Origin: a virus
Lineage: Duplodnaviria; Caudoviricetes
Direction: 5' to 3' (one strand)
DNA: 27,779 bases
Virus record (IMG/VR): IMGVR_UViG_3300020365_000101
Location: 1 to 27,779 of that record
This document shows, one piece after another, positions 1,555 through 27,779 of the stretch. The notes under the pieces are model-generated. The model was not told the origin of the DNA, searched no databases, and saw only the letters and a list, made by a program, of their open reading frames with translations. The position numbers and the translations under genes are program-made. The first letter of the stretch is position 1, and each line of letters opens with the position of its first letter.

Positions 1555-2463
1555 ATGGCTTTTGCAGTATCATCAGGTCGTCCGGACTACACGGGCAACT
1601 TTATTCCTGAGATCTGGTCAGGCAAGCTCATCGAGAATTTCTACGATGCGACTGTTCTGTCTGCGATCTCTAACACTGACTACGAAGGTGAAATTCGTAA
1701 CATGGGTGACACGGTTAACATCCGTACCACTCCGGAGATCACCATTCAAACCTACGTTAAGGGCCAGACTCTTGCAGTCGAAAACCCTGACAAGGCTAAA
1801 CTGCAGCTCGTAATCGACAAAGGCGAGTACTTCGCTTGCGTTGAAGACGATGTTGATCAGGTTCAGTCTGACATCGCTTTGATGGATATGTGGTCTAAAG
1901 ACGCTTCTGAGCGTATGAAGATCAAAATCGACGAGCGTGTCTTGACTGATCTACTACCAGATGTATCCGCAAATAACAAAGGCACAACAGCTGGCGCTAT
2001 TTCTGGGAACATTGATCTTGGTGTAGCAGGTACTCCCGAAGCTCTTACAAAGAGCAATGTCATTGATAAAATCGTAGACATGGGAACAGTTCTTGACGAA
2101 GCTAACTGTCCAGAAGGGGATCGCTTCCTTGTGATTCCTGCGAAGATGGCTGGCCTTATCAAGCAGTCTGACCTGAAAGACGCATCCATTACTGGTGACA
2201 ATCAGTCGCCGCTGCGTAATGGCCGTCTGGGCATGATCGACCGCTTTACTGTTTACGTTTCCCACAACCTGAAGAAAACTGCAGGCGGTGAGTTCAGCGT
2301 AATCGGTGGTCATAAGATGGGCTTTACATTTGCATCTCAGATGACAAACATGGAAACCATCCGGTCTGAAACAACTTTTGGCAACATCATTCGTGGTCTT
2401 CAAGTTTACGGCTATAAAGTCGTTAAGCCTGAAGCTCTAGCCACAATGATTGTTACTGTATAA
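1555..2463 (+). CDS. Major capsid protein (HK97 fold, P22-coat-like)
   Basis: Strong AGGAGG RBS; motifs FIPEIWSGKL, YEGEI..GDTVNI and FGNIIRGLQVYGYKVVKPEAL; biased codon usage consistent with high expression. Confidence 0.92.
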   Translation: MAFAVSSGRPDYTGNFIPEIWSGKLIENFYDATVLSAISNTDYEGEIRNMGDTVNIRTTPEITIQTYVKGQTLAVENPDKAKLQLVIDKGEYFACVEDDVDQVQSDIALMDMWSKDASERMKIKIDERVLTDLLPDVSANNKGTTAGAISGNIDLGVAGTPEALTKSNVIDKIVDMGTVLDEANCPEGDRFLVIPAKMAGLIKQSDLKDASITGDNQSPLRNGRLGMIDRFTVYVSHNLKKTAGGEFSVIGGHKMGFTFASQMTNMETIRSETTFGNIIRGLQVYGYKVVKPEALATMIVTV

Positions 2464-2976: not shown

Positions 2977-3138
2977 ATGGCGAAAAAAGCAGTTCAAGCA
3001 CCAAAAGGCTATCATTGGATGAAAGCTGGTAAAGGCTATAAGCTAATGAAAAATCCACCCGCAGGTTACAAACCTCATAAAGGTGCTAGCTTAAAAGCCA
3101 CATTTGAAATACAGAAGGTTCATAATGGCAAAAATTGA
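2977..3138 (+). CDS. Small Lys-rich hypothetical protein (53 aa)
   Basis: GAGGG RBS then ATG 2977 (MAKKAVQAPKGYHWMKAGKGYKLMK...). The track start at 2923 would cross the terminator. Confidence 0.75.
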   Translation: MAKKAVQAPKGYHWMKAGKGYKLMKNPPAGYKPHKGASLKATFEIQKVHNGKN

Positions 3139-9498: not shown

Positions 9499-10094
9499 GT
9501 TCTGTTCTTAAAGTTGACACGATACAGACTGCATCGGGAGCGACTCCTACAATAACGGATCTCGGAATATCAAACGCAGCAGGATCAGTGCTCCAAGTAG
9601 TTCACGGTACGCTACCCACCACTGTTTCATCGACTGGTGCGTCGGGTTCTGATTACTTAGTAAATATTGGGCTAAGCGCTACCATAACGCCTAAAGCTAA
9701 TAATAGTAAAATATTGATCGACGTAACTATGTATATTGGTTCAGATCAGGCAAACTCTGGCGGTTATCTACAGTCTTACCTAATATATAAAGCAGGAAGT
9801 GTTTTCGATGATGTTCACGGAACATCTGAAAGCGGTAGAAGACGGGTAGCTGGATCAATAAATATGTACGATACGGGCGGAACTTACACGACGTATAGAA
9901 TGGGTGTGCTTTCTGGTACGCATATGGACACTAATGTAGGCACTACAAGTGCGACTACCTACGCGATATACATGAGGGCTTATTCTAGTGGCCCGCATAT
10001 ATATGTTAATAGGAGTCAGGCGTATCAGTCATCGGGTACTAACTACGATCATAACCCTTCATCAACTATAACACTTACAGAAATTGCGGTATAG
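9495..10094 (+). CDS. Tail-fibre tip/receptor-binding-like protein 3
   Basis: MSSVLKVDTI, GSVLQVV, TITPKANNSKILI, TTSATTY and STITLTEIAV; paralog of the preceding gene. Confidence 0.72.
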   Translation: MSSVLKVDTIQTASGATPTITDLGISNAAGSVLQVVHGTLPTTVSSTGASGSDYLVNIGLSATITPKANNSKILIDVTMYIGSDQANSGGYLQSYLIYKAGSVFDDVHGTSESGRRRVAGSINMYDTGGTYTTYRMGVLSGTHMDTNVGTTSATTYAIYMRAYSSGPHIYVNRSQAYQSSGTNYDHNPSSTITLTEIAV

Positions 10095-12544: not shown

Positions 12545-12682
12545 ATGCCAAGCGGTAAGAAAGTAGGAATGACAGTGAAAGATAAAAACGATAAGAAAAT
12601 CGCACAATATGGCGGTGGCGGAAAAATTAAAAAACCAAGGAAGCCAATGTCTTATAAAAAAGGCGGCGTTATTAAAAAGTAA
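12545..12682 (+). CDS. Small Lys-rich protein (45 aa) with two YxxGGxI motifs, missing from ORF track
   Basis: AGGAGGT RBS; MPSGKKVGMTVKDKNDKKIAQYGGGGKIKKPRKPMSYKKGGVIKK*; TAATG coupling to the next gene. Confidence 0.8.
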   Translation: MPSGKKVGMTVKDKNDKKIAQYGGGGKIKKPRKPMSYKKGGVIKK

Positions 12683-20525: not shown

Positions 20526-23165
20526 ATGGGATTGCTCGGAGATTTTGTAGGTAACACGCTAGGGCTTCAGTCGGGGCAAGAGTATGCTAGTTCCGTTGAG
20601 GCAGCTAGTAGGTTGCGTGCGCTACAGCGTAAGAATCAAGCTATTGCTGATATGCGGGATTTTGCTCAACCGTCGCAGTCAACTCCTATAAGCTCTGTAG
20701 AAGCATTTAACCCTGACGATTCCTCGCTTAACTTTGACAACCTGCAACAGCCAGGATTGCGTGACATTCCCCCACCACCAAAGCCACCTGTTGACCAAGA
20801 AGGCGGCGTGGCACAGGGTATGGATCAAGCGGATGAAGTTACTACTGAGCCTACACCTAAGCGTGATTCAAGTGGTAACATTATTATGGAGCCATCAGCC
20901 GATGGCCGTCTAGGTGACGCACCTACTCTTGATACACCTGATCCATACGAAAACCCAGCAAATGAATTTTCTTTGTTGCCTGATCTTGGGCCAGAGCTTC
21001 CAGACCTAAGCACATACAACAGAGCTGCTCGCGCAGGCGAAGTAGCAAAGCGTAAGAATTTACAGACTTCTCTTACAGACATTATGAAATCTGCAGGCAT
21101 TCGACGTAAAGCAGGTATTGCTGGGCGGAATGTTACAAAGGAGCAAGGCGATGCCTACAAATGGTGGTCTAGCGACGATGCTTTCCGGTTGTTCTACAAC
21201 AATCCAAGGTTGCTTGATGAAGCTAGAAGAGATCCTATCGGATTTGCCAAACGTTATTCAAGTCAGCAGCCTCAAAGAACTCAATCTGATATTGCTGCTA
21301 ATTCTGGAACTCGCACTAAAAAACTTATCGACGGGCGTATCGAGGGTCTAAAGACTCAGATTGATGGCGATAAAGTACAAGAAGTTTATAGAGCCGCCAA
21401 CGAAATTGGTATCGACCCGTTTGCTGCAATCGCAATTTTTGGTATTGAATCTGACTTTGGACGAGCCAAAGGTGTAAGCGCTAAGGGTGCAGTCGGCGGT
21501 ATGCAGGTTATGCCTGAGCAGTTTAACCGCCTAAAGAAATGGTTTGCTGACCCTGCCAACCTTGAGCAAATTAAAAATGCGTTCCGTATGCCTAACGGCG
21601 AAGTAAACATGGCTCGCGTAGAGTACGCAATTCAAACATTTTCTAACATGAAACAGCCTGGGTCTCGTGGCCGTGGCACTCCTAACGCCAACATCTACGC
21701 TGGACTTGCGCAGCTAGTGTACAACAAAGCCATTGGGCTACCCAAGAACCTATGGGGTGCAGGCTATCAAGGTAACGCTAACGAAGTCTTAGCTGCAGGT
21801 CGCCCACTTATGGTGGACGATGGTAACATTAGTAACTCTGATTACAACCGCGCCTATGTCTCACTATACAACCATATCCAACAGACCTATGGCGGAAAGC
21901 TAGCAGAAATACAAACTCCGTATGGTATAGACCTCAACACGATTGCAGGGTCTGGCGTAGGCCAACCTGTTATGACACAGGCAGAAGTACCATCGCAAAA
22001 CAATCAAACTACACAGACCACAGAAAACACTGATGTAAGCACAGCTATGCCTGCTGCAGGTCTTAATACAGGCCAACAGCAAACACAGACAAGCACCAGT
22101 GGCTATGAGATTCGACAAGAAGATGGCCCTGTAGTCTATAAAGACGGTAAGCCCGTAATGCGGTTTGCTGGCGAAGACGGCCAAAAAAGAGCTGAAGATT
22201 ATATTGCAGGTGAAACAGGCACATCCATCTCAAGCCCATCAGTACAGCCTGATGAGAATACTATTACTCGATTCCTTGAGAATCCGCCTGACATTGGCAT
22301 TGAGATGCAGAATCTTCTCAAACAGCGCGAGCTTACAGTAAACTCTATTAACCGTCAGCTACAGCTAACTAATGAAAAGATCAACGCCGCAAATGCAAAA
22401 GCTGCTGAGTATGACAGGTATGCAGAGATTGCACTGGCTAACGGTCAGGTTGCTGATTTTGAAAGGTATAAGGGTCTAGCTCAGACCGAAGTTGATAACG
22501 CTAGAACCCTGCGCGATGAAGCTATTATAGCTAGAGACGGCAAACAGATTGAAATTTTACAGTACGACAACAAGATGCTACTGGTACAGGGTGCACAAGC
22601 ACTGCGTGACCTGTCGTTTGGCTCTACCGCTCGCGCTGGCGCTGTTATGTCTGCCTTCACTGGGCTAGATATTCAGATACAGCCACGATCTGACGGCAAG
22701 TTTGACATCGTTGTACAAGGTAACGTGCAGCAGACACTCACAATGGCGCAGCTGTCAGACAGACTGCAGCGTACATATAGCCAAGCATATAGAGATAGCC
22801 AGACCAAAATCCAGACAGAACGTCAAACATATCTGTTTGAAAAGTCTGTCGATCTTGAAGTTAAACTGGCTGAAGAACAGGCAAAATTCATAAACCAAAT
22901 GAAAACAGATCAGCTAAAATATGAAGCTGAAAGATTCCTTGAGAAAATGAAGCAAATGGGCGGTGAGTTTAAAGCTCTGGGTAACGGCATGGCTCTTGTT
23001 CAGCAAGGTGGTCAGTTCTTCTTGGTCAATCCTACTAAGGTAGTTAAAGGCGCAGATGGTAAAGCAGAAGAGCGCTTGGACGTACAGCAGATCCCACTAG
23101 CACAAGCTATGGCGCTACTAAGCAGTGCGTCACAAGGTGAAGATTTCGTAGCCGCGACAGAGTGA
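20526..23165 (+). CDS. Internal virion protein with lytic transglycosylase (SLT-like) domain
   Basis: TAAGGAG RBS; GIDP....AI..IES (catalytic Glu codon 21447-21449), SAKGAVGGMQVMP, later GAGYQG and YV; long C-terminal coiled coils. Confidence 0.82.
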   Translation: MGLLGDFVGNTLGLQSGQEYASSVEAASRLRALQRKNQAIADMRDFAQPSQSTPISSVEAFNPDDSSLNFDNLQQPGLRDIPPPPKPPVDQEGGVAQGMDQADEVTTEPTPKRDSSGNIIMEPSADGRLGDAPTLDTPDPYENPANEFSLLPDLGPELPDLSTYNRAARAGEVAKRKNLQTSLTDIMKSAGIRRKAGIAGRNVTKEQGDAYKWWSSDDAFRLFYNNPRLLDEARRDPIGFAKRYSSQQPQRTQSDIAANSGTRTKKLIDGRIEGLKTQIDGDKVQEVYRAANEIGIDPFAAIAIFGIESDFGRAKGVSAKGAVGGMQVMPEQFNRLKKWFADPANLEQIKNAFRMPNGEVNMARVEYAIQTFSNMKQPGSRGRGTPNANIYAGLAQLVYNKAIGLPKNLWGAGYQGNANEVLAAGRPLMVDDGNISNSDYNRAYVSLYNHIQQTYGGKLAEIQTPYGIDLNTIAGSGVGQPVMTQAEVPSQNNQTTQTTENTDVSTAMPAAGLNTGQQQTQTSTSGYEIRQEDGPVVYKDGKPVMRFAGEDGQKRAEDYIAGETGTSISSPSVQPDENTITRFLENPPDIGIEMQNLLKQRELTVNSINRQLQLTNEKINAANAKAAEYDRYAEIALANGQVADFERYKGLAQTEVDNARTLRDEAIIARDGKQIEILQYDNKMLLVQGAQALRDLSFGSTARAGAVMSAFTGLDIQIQPRSDGKFDIVVQGNVQQTLTMAQLSDRLQRTYSQAYRDSQTKIQTERQTYLFEKSVDLEVKLAEEQAKFINQMKTDQLKYEAERFLEKMKQMGGEFKALGNGMALVQQGGQFFLVNPTKVVKGADGKAEERLDVQQIPLAQAMALLSSASQGEDFVAATE

Positions 23166-23172
23166 GGGTAGT

Positions 23173-26100
23173 ATGGCAAAAGCAGGACTTAAATCTTTCG
23201 GAAGCCCTACACTTAGCGCGATGGATTTGGAGCCACTAGGCAATCCTTACGATGTCGCACCTGACATCGGGATGGGCAACCTCCTAGGTAGAAGGGAAGC
23301 TCTTACTAACGAAGCAGACAGTGTCTTTAATCAGGCTATGTCTCAGTTCTCTATGCCTGAGATGAAACGACCTGCACCTACTGGCCCTAATGTTCTGTTC
23401 GATCCATCAGCTAACAAGATGTTTGTAAACGGGTCGTTGTTTGACCTTGACGACGCTGACGCAGCCGTAAAGTCCAAAGGTTTTTTAACTGGCCCACGCC
23501 AAGAGCCACCGTCAGGCAACTGGCAGCGTGTTACACCTGCTGAATATGGCAGGTACTATAAGTCTATTACTGACCCTACACTTAGCCGTAGATTCTCTGA
23601 GAACGTTGATATTGGTATGGCCAACCTGCGGTCTTTGTTTGGCGCAGGTGCTGTGTTGCTTGGCGCTGACGAATACGGCCTTGGGGTCATGGAGCGTGCA
23701 GATGAAGTTATCCGCAAAAAATCACCGTTTGCAGGTGAAGCTACAGACATCGGCTTTGGAGATGAAGATCTCGGCCCTGTAGAGTGGTTTGTAGGTGTAC
23801 TGGGCGCACAAGGCCCGATGCTTCTTGAGACCATTGCTGCAGCAGGTATAGGTTTTGTCCTAGGTTCTGCCACTGCAGGGCCAGGTTTGGGTTCCGCAGC
23901 AGGTACAGTCGGTGGCCTGTTTGGTAAAACAGCGTTCAAGAAAGCTGTAAAAGAAGCCGCAGAAGAGTATACAAAGATTAAAGCTAAGGACGGCAAGGCA
24001 GCAGCCAAAGCCTTCCTGAAGACTGACAAAGGTAAGACGCTCAAACGTGCGTCAGGTGCCGCAGGTGCCGTTGGCCTTAGCTACACTAACAACTTTGGTA
24101 TTGCATCGTCTGATGTGTACTCAGAGCTATTGGAGTCAGGCGTAGATGTAGACGATTTTAACGCTAAAATGACTGCACTTACAGCTGCAGTGCCATACGC
24201 TGCACTCGATACCATCCCTGAATTTGTTGTAGGTGCTAAGCTTTTTGGTGGGTTGCGTGCAGGATCAAAGGGCGGGCGCTTGCGTCGTGGCGCAACAGGC
24301 GTTGGGGTAGGTGGCGCACTAGAAGGTGTTACAGAAGCAGGCCAAGAAGGCATTATTATGGGTGCAACTAGCGCCTACACTGGACGCGAGTATGAAAGCG
24401 ATGAAGTACTCAACCGTCTGGTCAACTCATTTGCTGCAGGCGCAGCCATCGGTGGTACCATCGGTGGCGTTACTAACCTGAAGAGCAACAAAGAAGCTGA
24501 CCTACTACAAGGCACGCCTACTGAACAAGAAGAAACTCTTTTACTTGAGGATAAGCGGGATGAGAATGAGGCTATAGCAGGCCCTGATGCCCCCGCTGGA
24601 CTTTTAACAGGGCCACCACCTAGGCAGCTTCCAGCGCCCCCTCTAATGATTGAAGACTCAGGCACTATATTTGTAGGCCCAGAACAAACAGCTATTCCAA
24701 TGCCGCCACCGGCTCCACCAACTCCTCCACAGCCTGTGGATAACGTTGTGGAAAGCATTGAGCAAGTTGCACAACAGCAACCTGCAAACCCGCAAGAGCA
24801 ACCTAATCTTATGCAGCAGCGTATGCAAGAAGCTGCTGCACGACAGCGAGAGCAAGAAGCTCAGCAGCAACAACAAGCGCAACAAGCAGCACAAGAGGCT
24901 GAACTGCGCAGACAGGAAGATGAACGCATAGAACGGAATAACCGCGAAGTCGAAAACGCACTGGCTTTACAGCAGGCGCAAAACGAAATCGCGGCTTATG
25001 AGGCGGAGCAGGCTGGCGTGACGCAGCCCGAACTTCCTCCCGTGGCAGCGCCGGTACAGACTAATCTCCCTACTGTACCAGTTCCTCCTGCTCCGCCTCG
25101 CCAGCTAGATCTGTTTCGTGGTCAGGTAAAAGCTCCAAAACCATCGAAAGCAGAACAAAAGGCTATCAACAAAGCTAACCGTCTGCGCCGCAAGCAAGAG
25201 CGTGAGTTCCAGAAAGCGCAAGAAGAAGCGGCACTCCCAATGACTCCAACGGAAGCTCGTGCAGCAGGGCAAGGTATCCTACTTACACAGCGTGGCGAAC
25301 CGTCAGTTGCTGCACTCAAGGCAGCCGGTACTGTAGCGCCAGCCACACCAGAACTTGTTCAGACAACACCTGCTGAAGAAGTTGCAGTTGCGCAACAGCA
25401 AGAAATCAACAGACTTCAGCAACAAGTGCAGGAACTTTCTGCAGCTCGTGCAGAGGAAAGCAGTTCCGCCGCTGAGTATAAAACTACTAAACAGGAGGAG
25501 TTTGACGTTGCTGTGCGCGAAATGCCTGCGCAACTGGCTATGGGTCAGTATTGGCAGAATCAATGGAACGACGCTAATTCTATCTCAGATATAGATAAAG
25601 TTCTTGCCGATATGAAGCAAGTCAGAGAGGAGGTAACACAAAATGTACAAGAGCAAAGCACAGAAAACGTGGATGGAAGCGAACAGGCCAGACCTAGCGA
25701 AGCAGTTCGAAGCGGAAACACCCAAGAACGCGCAGCTGCCGCAGTCGTTGAGTCCGAGAAGCGCCTCAGAGAAGCGGAGGATAGCAAGGCAGCTAGCCGC
25801 CCTGCGGAAACAGAAGCAGCCGTTCGGGAAGATAGCGGTCAACAAGGTGTACAGGAAGATAGCGTACAAGGGGGAACTCAGCTAGACCCAGACTCTGAGC
25901 AAGCCATTGCCGAGGAGCTAACATACCAGTTTGATTTCCAAGAAGCTCTAGGGGAACTGCGTGGTATTGCTGTATCCCTGTTGGATTACGCATACTGGGC
26001 TGCTGCACCTAGTGGCACAAGTAACGCAGCAGATGACTACAGAGCTGCACGGGCCACAGCTAAAGCCTATGTAGATAAAGCGTTTACAGACCCTGAGTAT

Positions 26101-27779
26101 TTTACAGAGGCTCAACTAAAAATTTTAGACGAACAGTTTGTTAAGTTTGCTACATATGAAACGGACACCCGCTCGTCTACTCAACCGTGGTTTGAGTATG
26201 CTGCACGCCGTGGTCTTGTAGAAAGAATTGCTAATCCTGACCCAAAGAAAGGTATAAAGATTACAGGTGCGCCGTACGAGAAGATGAGCAAGGCAGCAGC
26301 CAAGGCTGCTAACGTATCTCCGGCTCGCAGTGAAGACACCACAGACCTTAACGAAGCAGCGGCAGCGGCTGATGGCAAAGTTACTGGCGGCGGTAGGTAC
26401 TTCAAGATCGACGACAACACTGAGATCACACAGCCTCTGGATAAGCTGCGTGTAACTGCTATCGCAAAGAACGCTATCCGTAAGCTAAAGACCAAGCCTA
26501 CTGTGACCGTGGTCAAAGACCAGAACGATCTGCGTGAGAACCACCCAGAGCTATTCAAACGGGCTATGGAGTCTCGTCCTGACGGCGACTTTGAGTTCAC
26601 ACCTGCTGGCGGTTTCTCTGTTGGCGATCAAGTCATTCTGTTCAGCGATAACATTAAGACTGAGAAGCAAGCTCGCTTCATCATTGCCCACGAAACTATG
26701 GGCCACTTTGGTCTGGGTGCTTTCTTAGGCAAACCGCAGCTAGAAACTGTGATGGATAACATCTATCAAGATGACTCTAGTGTACGAGTGAAAGCTGACC
26801 GCCGTATGGAAATGTACGGTGAAAGCAAAGCCGAAGCAGTTGAAGAAGTCATTGCCAATATGGCAGCTGACCTAGACGCACACCTCATCAAGCGGATCTG
26901 GTACGCCATCAAGGATGCTCTTGAGACTATGGGTATGGAGTTTGAGGATAGTCTTGCCAGGTATATGTTAAGACAATCACGCAGGAACTTGTTGCAGGGT
27001 GGTAGCGGCCTTGTAAGTATGCAAGAGCTTAGCAAAAACTTAGAAAGCCTAAGAACTGACAACACGTTGGGGCGGTTTAATGTTGTTGACGACACTGCAA
27101 ATGCCGCATCACGGGCGCTTTCGTCACATGCCTACACCAAGCGTGCAGGCGATACAGGCGGACTGAAAGGACTGGCGCAGACATTTAAGAAGATTAAAGA
27201 TGTAGAAAACATCCGCGACTTTAGTGTATGGCTTGGCTCACTAGCTGAAAACGTACAGTCACTAGACAATGCAGCCACCAGAAGTGACGGCCTACAGCAG
27301 GTGTTTAACATCTTCCAAGCTAGAGCCAACCGTTCACGCCGCCACCTTGCGACCTACGAGTCTATGACTTCGTACTCACACCAAGCGTTTAACGGGCCAA
27401 CGAAAGAAGAACTAGAAAAAGCTGGCGAGCTTCTTGCCCATGCTGCACTACACAAGCAGGACATGATTACTGATGAGCAGATTAGAGACTTGTCAGTAGA
27501 AGTAGGCACTGATCAGAACGGCGATCCGATTAGGGTAAGCGATCTCGTGGTTATGGAGAACGGTGTAGCTGGCATCAACCGTGAGCTGTTTGAAGCAGCA
27601 GTAGCGGCAGGGAATATTACACGCGAACAGTTTGCTCAGGGGCTTGCTGTTACTCTGGGCGACCAAGAGCAGAAAGTATTTGCAACCAAGACTTACACAC
27701 CAGCAGAAGCTATCACAGATAACGAGTGGCGCATCTACACCGAGCAACGCAAAGCAGTAAATCAAGCAGCACTGGATGT
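23173..27779 (+). CDS. Giant internal virion/ejection (polyvalent-like) protein, 3' truncated, with zincin-like metallopeptidase motif; missing from ORF track
   Basis: GAGGG RBS and ATG 23173 (MAKAGLKSFGSPTL...); frame open to the window end (1535 codons). G/A-rich membrane-like region with EGVTEAGQE, P/Q/E-rich linker, AHETMGHFGL (His codons 26689 and 26704) with EEVIA downstream (26842). Confidence 0.88.
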   Translation, partial: MAKAGLKSFGSPTLSAMDLEPLGNPYDVAPDIGMGNLLGRREALTNEADSVFNQAMSQFSMPEMKRPAPTGPNVLFDPSANKMFVNGSLFDLDDADAAVKSKGFLTGPRQEPPSGNWQRVTPAEYGRYYKSITDPTLSRRFSENVDIGMANLRSLFGAGAVLLGADEYGLGVMERADEVIRKKSPFAGEATDIGFGDEDLGPVEWFVGVLGAQGPMLLETIAAAGIGFVLGSATAGPGLGSAAGTVGGLFGKTAFKKAVKEAAEEYTKIKAKDGKAAAKAFLKTDKGKTLKRASGAAGAVGLSYTNNFGIASSDVYSELLESGVDVDDFNAKMTALTAAVPYAALDTIPEFVVGAKLFGGLRAGSKGGRLRRGATGVGVGGALEGVTEAGQEGIIMGATSAYTGREYESDEVLNRLVNSFAAGAAIGGTIGGVTNLKSNKEADLLQGTPTEQEETLLLEDKRDENEAIAGPDAPAGLLTGPPPRQLPAPPLMIEDSGTIFVGPEQTAIPMPPPAPPTPPQPVDNVVESIEQVAQQQPANPQEQPNLMQQRMQEAAARQREQEAQQQQQAQQAAQEAELRRQEDERIERNNREVENALALQQAQNEIAAYEAEQAGVTQPELPPVAAPVQTNLPTVPVPPAPPRQLDLFRGQVKAPKPSKAEQKAINKANRLRRKQEREFQKAQEEAALPMTPTEARAAGQGILLTQRGEPSVAALKAAGTVAPATPELVQTTPAEEVAVAQQQEINRLQQQVQELSAARAEESSSAAEYKTTKQEEFDVAVREMPAQLAMGQYWQNQWNDANSISDIDKVLADMKQVREEVTQNVQEQSTENVDGSEQARPSEAVRSGNTQERAAAAVVESEKRLREAEDSKAASRPAETEAAVREDSGQQGVQEDSVQGGTQLDPDSEQAIAEELTYQFDFQEALGELRGIAVSLLDYAYWAAAPSGTSNAADDYRAARATAKAYVDKAFTDPEYFTEAQLKILDEQFVKFATYETDTRSSTQPWFEYAARRGLVERIANPDPKKGIKITGAPYEKMSKAAAKAANVSPARSEDTTDLNEAAAAADGKVTGGGRYFKIDDNTEITQPLDKLRVTAIAKNAIRKLKTKPTVTVVKDQNDLRENHPELFKRAMESRPDGDFEFTPAGGFSVGDQVILFSDNIKTEKQARFIIAHETMGHFGLGAFLGKPQLETVMDNIYQDDSSVRVKADRRMEMYGESKAEAVEEVIANMAADLDAHLIKRIWYAIKDALETMGMEFEDSLARYMLRQSRRNLLQGGSGLVSMQELSKNLESLRTDNTLGRFNVVDDTANAASRALSSHAYTKRAGDTGGLKGLAQTFKKIKDVENIRDFSVWLGSLAENVQSLDNAATRSDGLQQVFNIFQARANRSRRHLATYESMTSYSHQAFNGPTKEELEKAGELLAHAALHKQDMITDEQIRDLSVEVGTDQNGDPIRVSDLVVMENGVAGINRELFEAAVAAGNITREQFAQGLAVTLGDQEQKVFATKTYTPAEAITDNEWRIYTEQRKAVNQAALD
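25628..25634 (+). promoter_or_regulatory. Intragenic perfect Shine-Dalgarno (AGGAGGT) for the nested ORF
   Basis: AGGAGGT, then an 8-nt A/C spacer (AACACAAA), then ATG at 25643. Confidence 0.7.
25643..25885 (+). CDS. Nested out-of-frame small basic protein (80 aa) inside the giant gene
   Basis: Perfect SD; +1 frame relative to the host ORF; MYKSKAQKTWMEANRPDLAKQFEAETPK..QLP resembles the small phage 'MPFKSxAQRxWMxANxPxxAKxWxxETP...LP' peptides (recalled, not searched). Confidence 0.72.
   Translation: MYKSKAQKTWMEANRPDLAKQFEAETPKNAQLPQSLSPRSASEKRRIARQLAALRKQKQPFGKIAVNKVYRKIAYKGELS

Follow-up and report, generated by a model that had tools for sequence, protein, structure and literature searches.

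The question raised by this locus is whether an 80-codon reading frame that starts from a strong ribosome binding site deep inside a giant phage gene is a gene in its own right, and what its product might do for the virus. The window, by which we mean the whole 27,779-nt stretch of DNA that was analysed, is a linear virus record with an estimated completeness of 52%, and the sequencing runs that match it best are marine metagenomes. The features on which the argument turns are as follows.

20526..23165, + strand: 879-aa gene preceding the giant gene, with a weak lytic transglycosylase match (Pfam SLT, PHROG 38211)
23173..27779, + strand: giant host gene, open at the window end, about 2500–2700 aa in relatives
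25403..25644, + strand: exchangeable host segment ending at the nested start codon (from contigs of runs X5 and X10 and an alignment)
25628..25634, + strand: Shine–Dalgarno (SD) sequence AGGAGGT of the nested gene, read from the sequence, with an 8-nt spacer to the ATG at 25643
25643..25885, + strand: nested gene, +1 relative to the giant frame; MPFKS-type family, 80-aa product with a net charge of +13
25643..25741, + strand: family core, residues 1–33, predicted two-helix hairpin (5–14 and 16–25) with a conserved Leu-Pro end
25742..25882, + strand: clade-specific basic extension, predicted helices 41–58 and 62–78
26371..26955, + strand: conserved giant-protein domain that contains an invariant HExxH-type motif and served as the anchor for collecting relatives

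The virion module of the window, as assigned by PHROG, includes a major head protein, tail fibre genes, a holin, an endolysin and an “internal virion protein”, and is followed by the 879-aa gene and then by the giant gene. The 879-aa gene matches Pfam SLT with an E-value of 4e-4 (20.3 bits, under the cut-off of 21.3) and PHROG 38211 with an E-value of 0.003. The part of the giant protein within the window has no PHROG or Pfam name; in the relative L011, which is 95% identical, the giant frame spans 2587 codons from stop to stop and its C-terminus matches PHROG 11358, a group of unknown function. Motifs of the HExxH type, like the one in the anchor domain, are characteristic of the zincin-like domains that polyvalent proteins of phages carry. 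Homology of the giant protein to any named ejection protein was not found, and it is from its position after the tail and lysis genes, next to an SLT-bearing neighbour, that we consider it probably an internal virion or ejection protein. T7-like ejection proteins are described as coming from a large gene that shares a block with a peptidoglycan hydrolase downstream of the tail genes (PMC8954989), a setting that the giant gene and its neighbour would fit. The major capsid protein of the window (1555–2463) has hits in an estimated 1,800 or so IMG/VR stretches, the best 80 at 81–99% identity, and shares 54% identity with that of the nearest cultured phage, Rhizobium RHph_TM3_14A; by this measure it points to an abundant uncultured group.

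The elements that an earlier note had read from the bare letters were confirmed on the sequence: AGGAGGT, a spacer of 8 nt and an ATG open a +1 frame of 80 codons whose product carries 19 K/R and 6 D/E. Over the same bases the giant frame encodes 17 D/E and 9 K/R, passing through the nested gene as an acidic linker. The length of the frame, taken alone, is within chance expectation: when the giant gene was shuffled synonymously 500 times, an ATG-started +1 ORF of at least 80 codons turned up in 133 of the shuffles, and such an ORF together with a strong SD in only 4. The note had also ranked the initiation site with the best of the window, which proved accurate: of the 116 out-of-frame ATGs tested in five long genes of the window, none has an SD that pairs as strongly (−13.4 kcal/mol), and among the 29 starts listed this one ranks second. 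An SD-like element is kept at the right distance in relatives even though the sequence upstream is non-homologous. A search for sigma-70-like promoters between 23000 and 27779 found none, with 3.5 expected. Short contigs from RNA runs X19 and X20 (a small share, from one study) touch the nested ORF and other parts of the giant gene; carrying no information on strand, start or level, they were excluded from the evidence. Two further small Lys-rich ORFs with an SD lie in the head/tail module of the window, at 2977–3138 (53 aa) and 12545–12682 (45 aa), and a PHROG match was found for neither.

Selection on the overlap is the evidence that separates a gene from an open frame. Across five relatives, synonymous differences in the giant frame amount to 19/237 (0.08) in the overlap and to 0.27–0.64 in the other 31 stretches of 80 codons along the giant gene. 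The wobble position of the host codons is the least variable of the three within the overlap (152 differences vs. 244 and 326), and across four disjoint pairs the second and third codon positions of the small frame show 43 vs. 92 differences (p 3e-5), so that changes are mostly silent in that frame. In uncorrected pairwise counts, overlap sites where a change alters the host protein and leaves the small one as it is show 0.48 differences per site, those where it alters only the small protein 0.15, and host synonymous sites outside the overlap 0.56–0.72. These site-class rates indicate that the small frame is under purifying selection and that the giant frame is close to neutral there. A second candidate overlap, at host codons 652–812 of L011 where synonymous differences fall to 0.27, was rejected because a six-way alignment gave pS of 0.40–0.52 and the forward frames are closed.

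The 80-codon frame thus has two of the properties expected of a functional same-strand nested gene, namely its own initiation site within another CDS and purifying selection on the nested frame, and on this comparative evidence we regard it as almost certainly a real gene. This was the central claim of the earlier note, which had named homologs, conservation of the SD and start in relatives, and constraint on host synonymous sites as the points to check. Family homologs exist, stand-alone ones among them, the SD and start are both retained in relatives, and the excess of synonymous conservation over the overlap is strong. Its expectation that standard gene callers would miss the gene was borne out for two GenBank records, where the nested copy is unannotated, but not for some metagenome contigs, on which it is called.

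Searches with the 80-aa protein gave no match in Pfam or PHROG, no tblastn match in GenBank phages, and in the ESM Atlas only unnamed viral clusters (0.86–0.87). The likeness to small stand-alone proteins of the MPFKS type, which the earlier note had put forward, was confirmed by search. A profile of this family finds 1,106 short proteins, and the family extends to 3,010 representatives at 50% identity with E ≤ 0.001. The window protein contains the core motif S-x-x-Q-x-x-W ... P-x-x-A ... L-P, whose positions are invariant in the family alignments, followed by a basic tail, and scores 55.8 bits against the family profile, which includes its own sequence. At a threshold of E ≤ 0.1, thirteen of 16 relatives match PHROG 1375 (E 4e-5 to 0.08), all of them short members, and three long clade members do not; this PHROG has neither an assigned function nor recorded nesting. 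The nested gene is a member of a large, old and uncharacterised family near PHROG 1375. The literature listings and abstracts covered contain no account of this family or of its nesting.

Nesting recurs across the family. The 80-aa protein alone recovered ten loci, several of which are near-copies, and in all ten the gene lies nested within a long open frame, in +1. The profile scan yielded 38 loci, 18 nested and 20 not, and a motif-defined IMG/VR sample 120 loci, 79 nested and 41 not; clustering the latter at 90% identity leaves 46 nested clusters, 30 stand-alone and 1 mixed. Every nested case seen lies in the +1 frame of its host. Hosts of at least 250 aa separate into four groups that BLAST does not connect at E<1e-8, made up of 29 Elemovirus-type giants, 19 copies of an acidic protein of about 400 aa, 16 window-type giants and 2 terminase large subunits. 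The two kinds of giants could be remote homologs. The ~400-aa host appears scaffold-like from the position of its homolog in Cellulophaga phage phi38:1, which has the portal on one side and a structural protein of 446 aa on the other. The terminase-nested copies, in L121 (2916-5018, − strand) and in L141, lie in the N-terminal part of the large-subunit reading frame. Among cultured phages, 68 records of Flavobacterium Elemovirus match the family, and both the one Elemovirus record inspected and MW202828 carry the gene nested in +1 of a giant structural gene, unannotated. In the A-rich loci L092–L168, of the Elemovirus and scaffold types, the SD is mostly absent from nested copies and the leaders are A-rich. 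Such leaders lacking an SD are known for translation initiation in Bacteroidota.

The neighbourhoods of 42 stand-alone loci are mixed. Eight lie within two genes of a portal, two adjoin a terminase (one of them also in the portal set), eight immediately follow a gene of at least 979 aa and five adjoin tail genes, and many neighbours are unnamed; some copies adjoin genes for ribonucleotide reductase, ligase/helicase, ParB-like proteins or glycosyltransferases. Homologs in actinophages are found just downstream of the portal, namely Indlulamithi gp3 (36.6 bits), an ORF of LilyPad (20.8) and, weakly, Patience gp10 (14.4); in Troll4, gene 9 before the homolog is unlabelled and its portal role comes from position. 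The LilyPad member (Gordonia phage, ON970620; L214:4960-5140) is unannotated and fills a gap between genes 7 and 8, and other Gordonia records likewise lack an annotation under the family match.

The core also occurs in longer proteins. Among 142 newly listed representatives 80 are at least 100 aa long, the module being nearly always N-terminal, and the C-terminal parts of these fusions fall into 63 clusters. Nine of the 80 have Pfam matches, including SAM lyase/DUF3293, cupin, ParB-like, DnaJ and DUF5661. P0176 (707 aa) combines the MPFKS module with a domain of the S-adenosylmethionine lyase/DUF3293 type, and the same type of domain lies just after the nested gene in an Elemovirus giant (L049 host residues ~1317–1405). 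An origin of the fusions by frameshift of the small ORF into the host frame found no support, only one of the 80 matching a host protein, through the SAM-lyase/DUF3293 domain.

How firmly is the gene tied to its site? In related strains from two other studies the host segment 25403..25644 is replaced by a different one of 140 nt, with the junction at the nested ATG. Eighty relatives of the giant gene were gathered by the anchor domain alone, independently of the small gene, and 73 were informative after seven had been dropped as too short. In these the slot holds an MPFKS-type gene in 46, a PHROG 2423-type gene in 8 and neither in 19, which corresponds at 90% anchor-domain identity to 28, 4 and 11 clusters, plus 2 clusters with both types. 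Either gene is in +1 of the giant frame. The second slot gene encodes a basic protein of 58–60 aa that matches PHROG 2423 in six of six cases tested (E 3e-10 to 3e-6) and, weakly and below the cut-off, DUF6496 in four of the six. No homology to the MPFKS family was detected in either direction. The PHROG 2423 family is mostly stand-alone (2 of 120 nested), and its stand-alone copies adjoin head genes, one directly following the portal.

Near-identical giant genes of sister phages can differ solely in whether a PHROG 2423-type or an MPFKS-type gene fills the slot. L242 and L250 have 55/60 bases in common upstream of the start and 58/60 downstream of the stop, and L264 and L265 are identical at 56/60 and 55/60, with different small genes in each pair (L242:8757-8933, L250:8864-8998, L264:8730-8900, L265:265-441). 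Two more sister pairs on the tree differ in the slot, with less similar flanks. On a quick tree of the giant downstream region, which used 62 of the 73 loci and to which long-branch warnings apply, the eight PHROG 2423-type rows need eight changes, seven of them forced by starred branches. In L250, counted among the 46 MPFKS-type loci, the giant frame is broken by a stop and a frame change after the nested gene (9834-10001), reflecting either a split gene or an assembly error. A slot shared by two non-homologous genes and swapped among close relatives is new.

The idea that a stand-alone copy replaces a missing nested gene was rejected, as none of the nine complete genomes without a nested MPFKS gene (three of which have the PHROG 2423-type) carries one. 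A distant PHROG 2423/DUF6496-like gene is found elsewhere in 3 of 9 empty-slot genomes and in 2 of 26 MPFKS genomes, the latter implying that the two families are not strictly exclusive. Four of the six complete empty-slot genomes have neither family anywhere, although diverged copies could be missed, and the role is therefore dispensable or filled by a third protein. Judged by this distribution, the nested gene is accessory.

Why the guest is always seen in +1 has a likely answer in the codon table. Relative to the small gene the host is read in −1, and this frame stays open in 9% of simulated recodings, compared with 53% for the other frame; among 40 stand-alone genes it is open in 4 and the other in 33. 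Ease of keeping −1 open was therefore rejected as the reason, the simulation showing the opposite. The −1 product of stand-alone genes has 13% D/E and 9% large hydrophobic residues plus Cys, whereas the other frame gives 26% K/R, 22% hydrophobic residues and 6.5% Cys. One thus encodes a polar acidic sequence and the other a basic, hydrophobic and Cys-bearing one, and of the two probably only the former can pass as a linker. The acidity of the host and its charge contrast with the guest are thus largely a property of the codon table, and the rise of −1 D/E to 22% in nested copies indicates some adjustment of the host frame.

As to the product, AlphaFold2 models (mean pLDDT 78–79, pTM 0.39–0.50) give the segment with the Leu-Pro after the predicted hairpin as extended, and most other family members have only a short Lys/Arg tail in place of the long basic extension. 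A sequence search of solved structures returned two matches at chance level (E 0.4, 13 residues), and fold searches of the model gave nothing meaningful (best Z 2.2), which is not proof of a new fold. We lean towards an accessory protein of the head interior that would dock through its helical module and bind DNA with its tail. This would best fit a portable N-terminal module, a basic tail and a linkage to head genes across host phyla, and the identified nested hosts, which are giant structural-type, scaffold-like or terminase genes, support a role in the head. A gene position in the head/core module is what an internal head protein should show; it is found here, and is not universal among stand-alone copies. 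Patience gp10 is listed among the virion proteins on mass-spectrometric grounds (PMC4324244, Table 1), with stringent spectra numbering 1 in particles and 4 early plus 2 late in infected cells (PMC4324244, Table S1). The link of gp10 to the family is weak at 14 bits. The preponderance of cell over particle spectra counts against the head role, as do the stand-alone copies next to non-structural genes, and basic charge alone is insufficient to show DNA binding.

If the product is such a head protein, the proposed sequence of events would be as follows. A member of an old family of small basic proteins sits as an exchangeable cassette in a linker of the giant gene, where ribosomes would start at the internal SD on late mRNA and thereby co-produce it with head and core proteins. 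The 33-residue hairpin would dock in the prohead, at the portal, scaffold or inner capsid face, while the basic tail would bind packaged DNA. Nesting would be tolerated since the −1 frame naturally gives a polar, acidic linker, and homologous recombination in the common flanks could swap one cassette for the other. Further still, giant virion genes might have a programmable slot, in which an internal ribosome binding site within a tolerant linker receives unrelated small basic genes, exchanged by recombination, as dual-coding cassettes, and the MPFKS module might be a universal prohead-targeting tag with which thousands of proteins of uncultured phages load cargo such as anti-restriction enzymes into the head, a speculation that we advance tentatively.

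Other explanations account for parts of these data. The product may act in the infected cell instead of the virion, as a late factor binding nucleic acid or a host protein, for instance by shielding portal, terminase or ejection proteins from host defence, with the slot as a site of diversifying selection. The repeated exchange of two unrelated cassettes among sisters (8 changes for 8 rows, 7 forced), their patchy presence among genomes, the larger number of Patience gp10 spectra from infected cells, some non-structural neighbours of stand-alone copies and the S-adenosylmethionine lyase domain in one fusion would all suit such a factor. Yet the core is much alike in phages of Flavobacterium, of Mycobacterium and of the window clade, which a universal ligand fits better than a target in an arms race, and linkage to head genes is strong; we consider an in-cell role, the main rival, rather unlikely. 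The earlier note had suggested, beside a DNA-binding internal head protein, a charge-complementary chaperone or partner of the encoding giant, and such a partnership would explain why the gene is nested throughout a well-supported clade of 12 rows whose giants diverge to ~25–30% identity, and why a very large gene directly precedes 8 of the 42 stand-alone copies. This proposal did not hold up well, because nested copies of the family also occur in scaffold-like and terminase genes, actinophage siphoviruses carry it as a separate gene, the host frame evolves almost neutrally over the overlap, and the −1 frame of stand-alone copies is already acidic (13% D/E) and poor in hydrophobic residues. 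Moreover, 19 of 73 giants lack a nested gene and 8 carry an unrelated protein, and a dedicated partner is accordingly improbable.

The two remaining explanations concern origin and reality, and the data leave little room for either. “Overprinted”, in the sense of a gene newly born de novo on the giant, would agree with its full nesting and with residues 41–80, which are clade-specific and may derive from the linker. The core, however, has homologs among genes that stand alone (20 of the 38 profile-scan loci and 41 of the 120 sampled by motif are not nested) and in thousands of further proteins, so that de novo birth is refuted for residues 1–33 by homology, and for the gene as a whole we think it very unlikely. 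The term has to be turned around: the family is old, with stand-alone members, and the giant frame is its near-neutral passenger. The small-protein tree, with 46 columns for 85 rows and a bootstrap that did not converge, resolves neither the order of the stand-alone and nested states nor the number of nesting events. A chance open frame, or a constraint on non-coding RNA or DNA, draws on the frequency of equally long ORFs among the shuffles. It has next to no credibility given a triplet pattern of change that tracks the small frame, an SD retained despite non-homologous upstream sequences, and stand-alone homologs that are annotated genes.

An accessory head protein from an old family remains our preferred reading. 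What the comparison shows reaches beyond this virus. One widespread family lives repeatedly inside several unrelated morphogenesis genes, and two non-homologous genes share one slot, a natural experiment on overlapping genes that come about when an existing gene is captured instead of a new one being born de novo. Annotation has a gap here as well, since nested copies make up 79 of the 120 sampled by motif and those in the two inspected GenBank records are unannotated. The acidic “linker motif” of many giant phage proteins is no more than the shadow of this gene. If the N-terminal module is a head-targeting tag, many unannotated fusion proteins would be explained. With Flavobacterium Elemovirus as a cultured carrier, the function is open to direct test.

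Fixed pairs such as Rz/Rz1 are the known form of nested genes in phages, and it is against these and other small phage proteins that the MPFKS gene is best measured. PHROG 2423/DUF6496-like proteins resemble its product in being small, basic, uncharacterised and found in the same slot, but they are non-homologous to it and mostly stand-alone. T7 gp6.7 and gp7.3 offer a functional analogy only, as small proteins associated with portal and ejection core: they are virion proteins ejected with the core, gp7.3 anchoring the DNA end, and their genes are not described in that source as nested (PMC11784390). The window protein has no sequence match to any solved chain. Mycobacteriophage Patience expresses out-of-frame ORFs that are embedded on the same strand inside its genes 20 and 91; they have ribosome binding sites of their own, and mass spectrometry detected their products (PMC4324244). 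They share with the MPFKS gene the same-strand embedding, the independent ribosome binding site and the tailed-phage setting; in that account they have no close relatives and ambiguous conservation, whereas the MPFKS gene belongs to a large family with clear signs of purifying selection. The nearest parallel is lambda Rz/Rz1, where the smaller gene lies entirely within the larger on the same strand, in +1; spanin pairs also occur overlapped and separated, the embedded form is argued to derive from separate genes, and embedded spanins include 116 cases in −1, without frame bias (PMC6139136). The MPFKS gene is likewise embedded in +1 on the same strand, and separate layouts of its family also exist. 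The two spanins of a pair assemble into a single complex, and the embedded gene keeps to its partner. By contrast, the 80-aa protein of the window has no cysteine and no hydrophobic signal, is encoded inside a giant gene and not an i-spanin gene, and is not a lipoprotein of the lipobox-type o-spanin (Rz1) kind; its family occurs in at least four host gene families, always in +1 where seen, and the gene is replaceable at its site.
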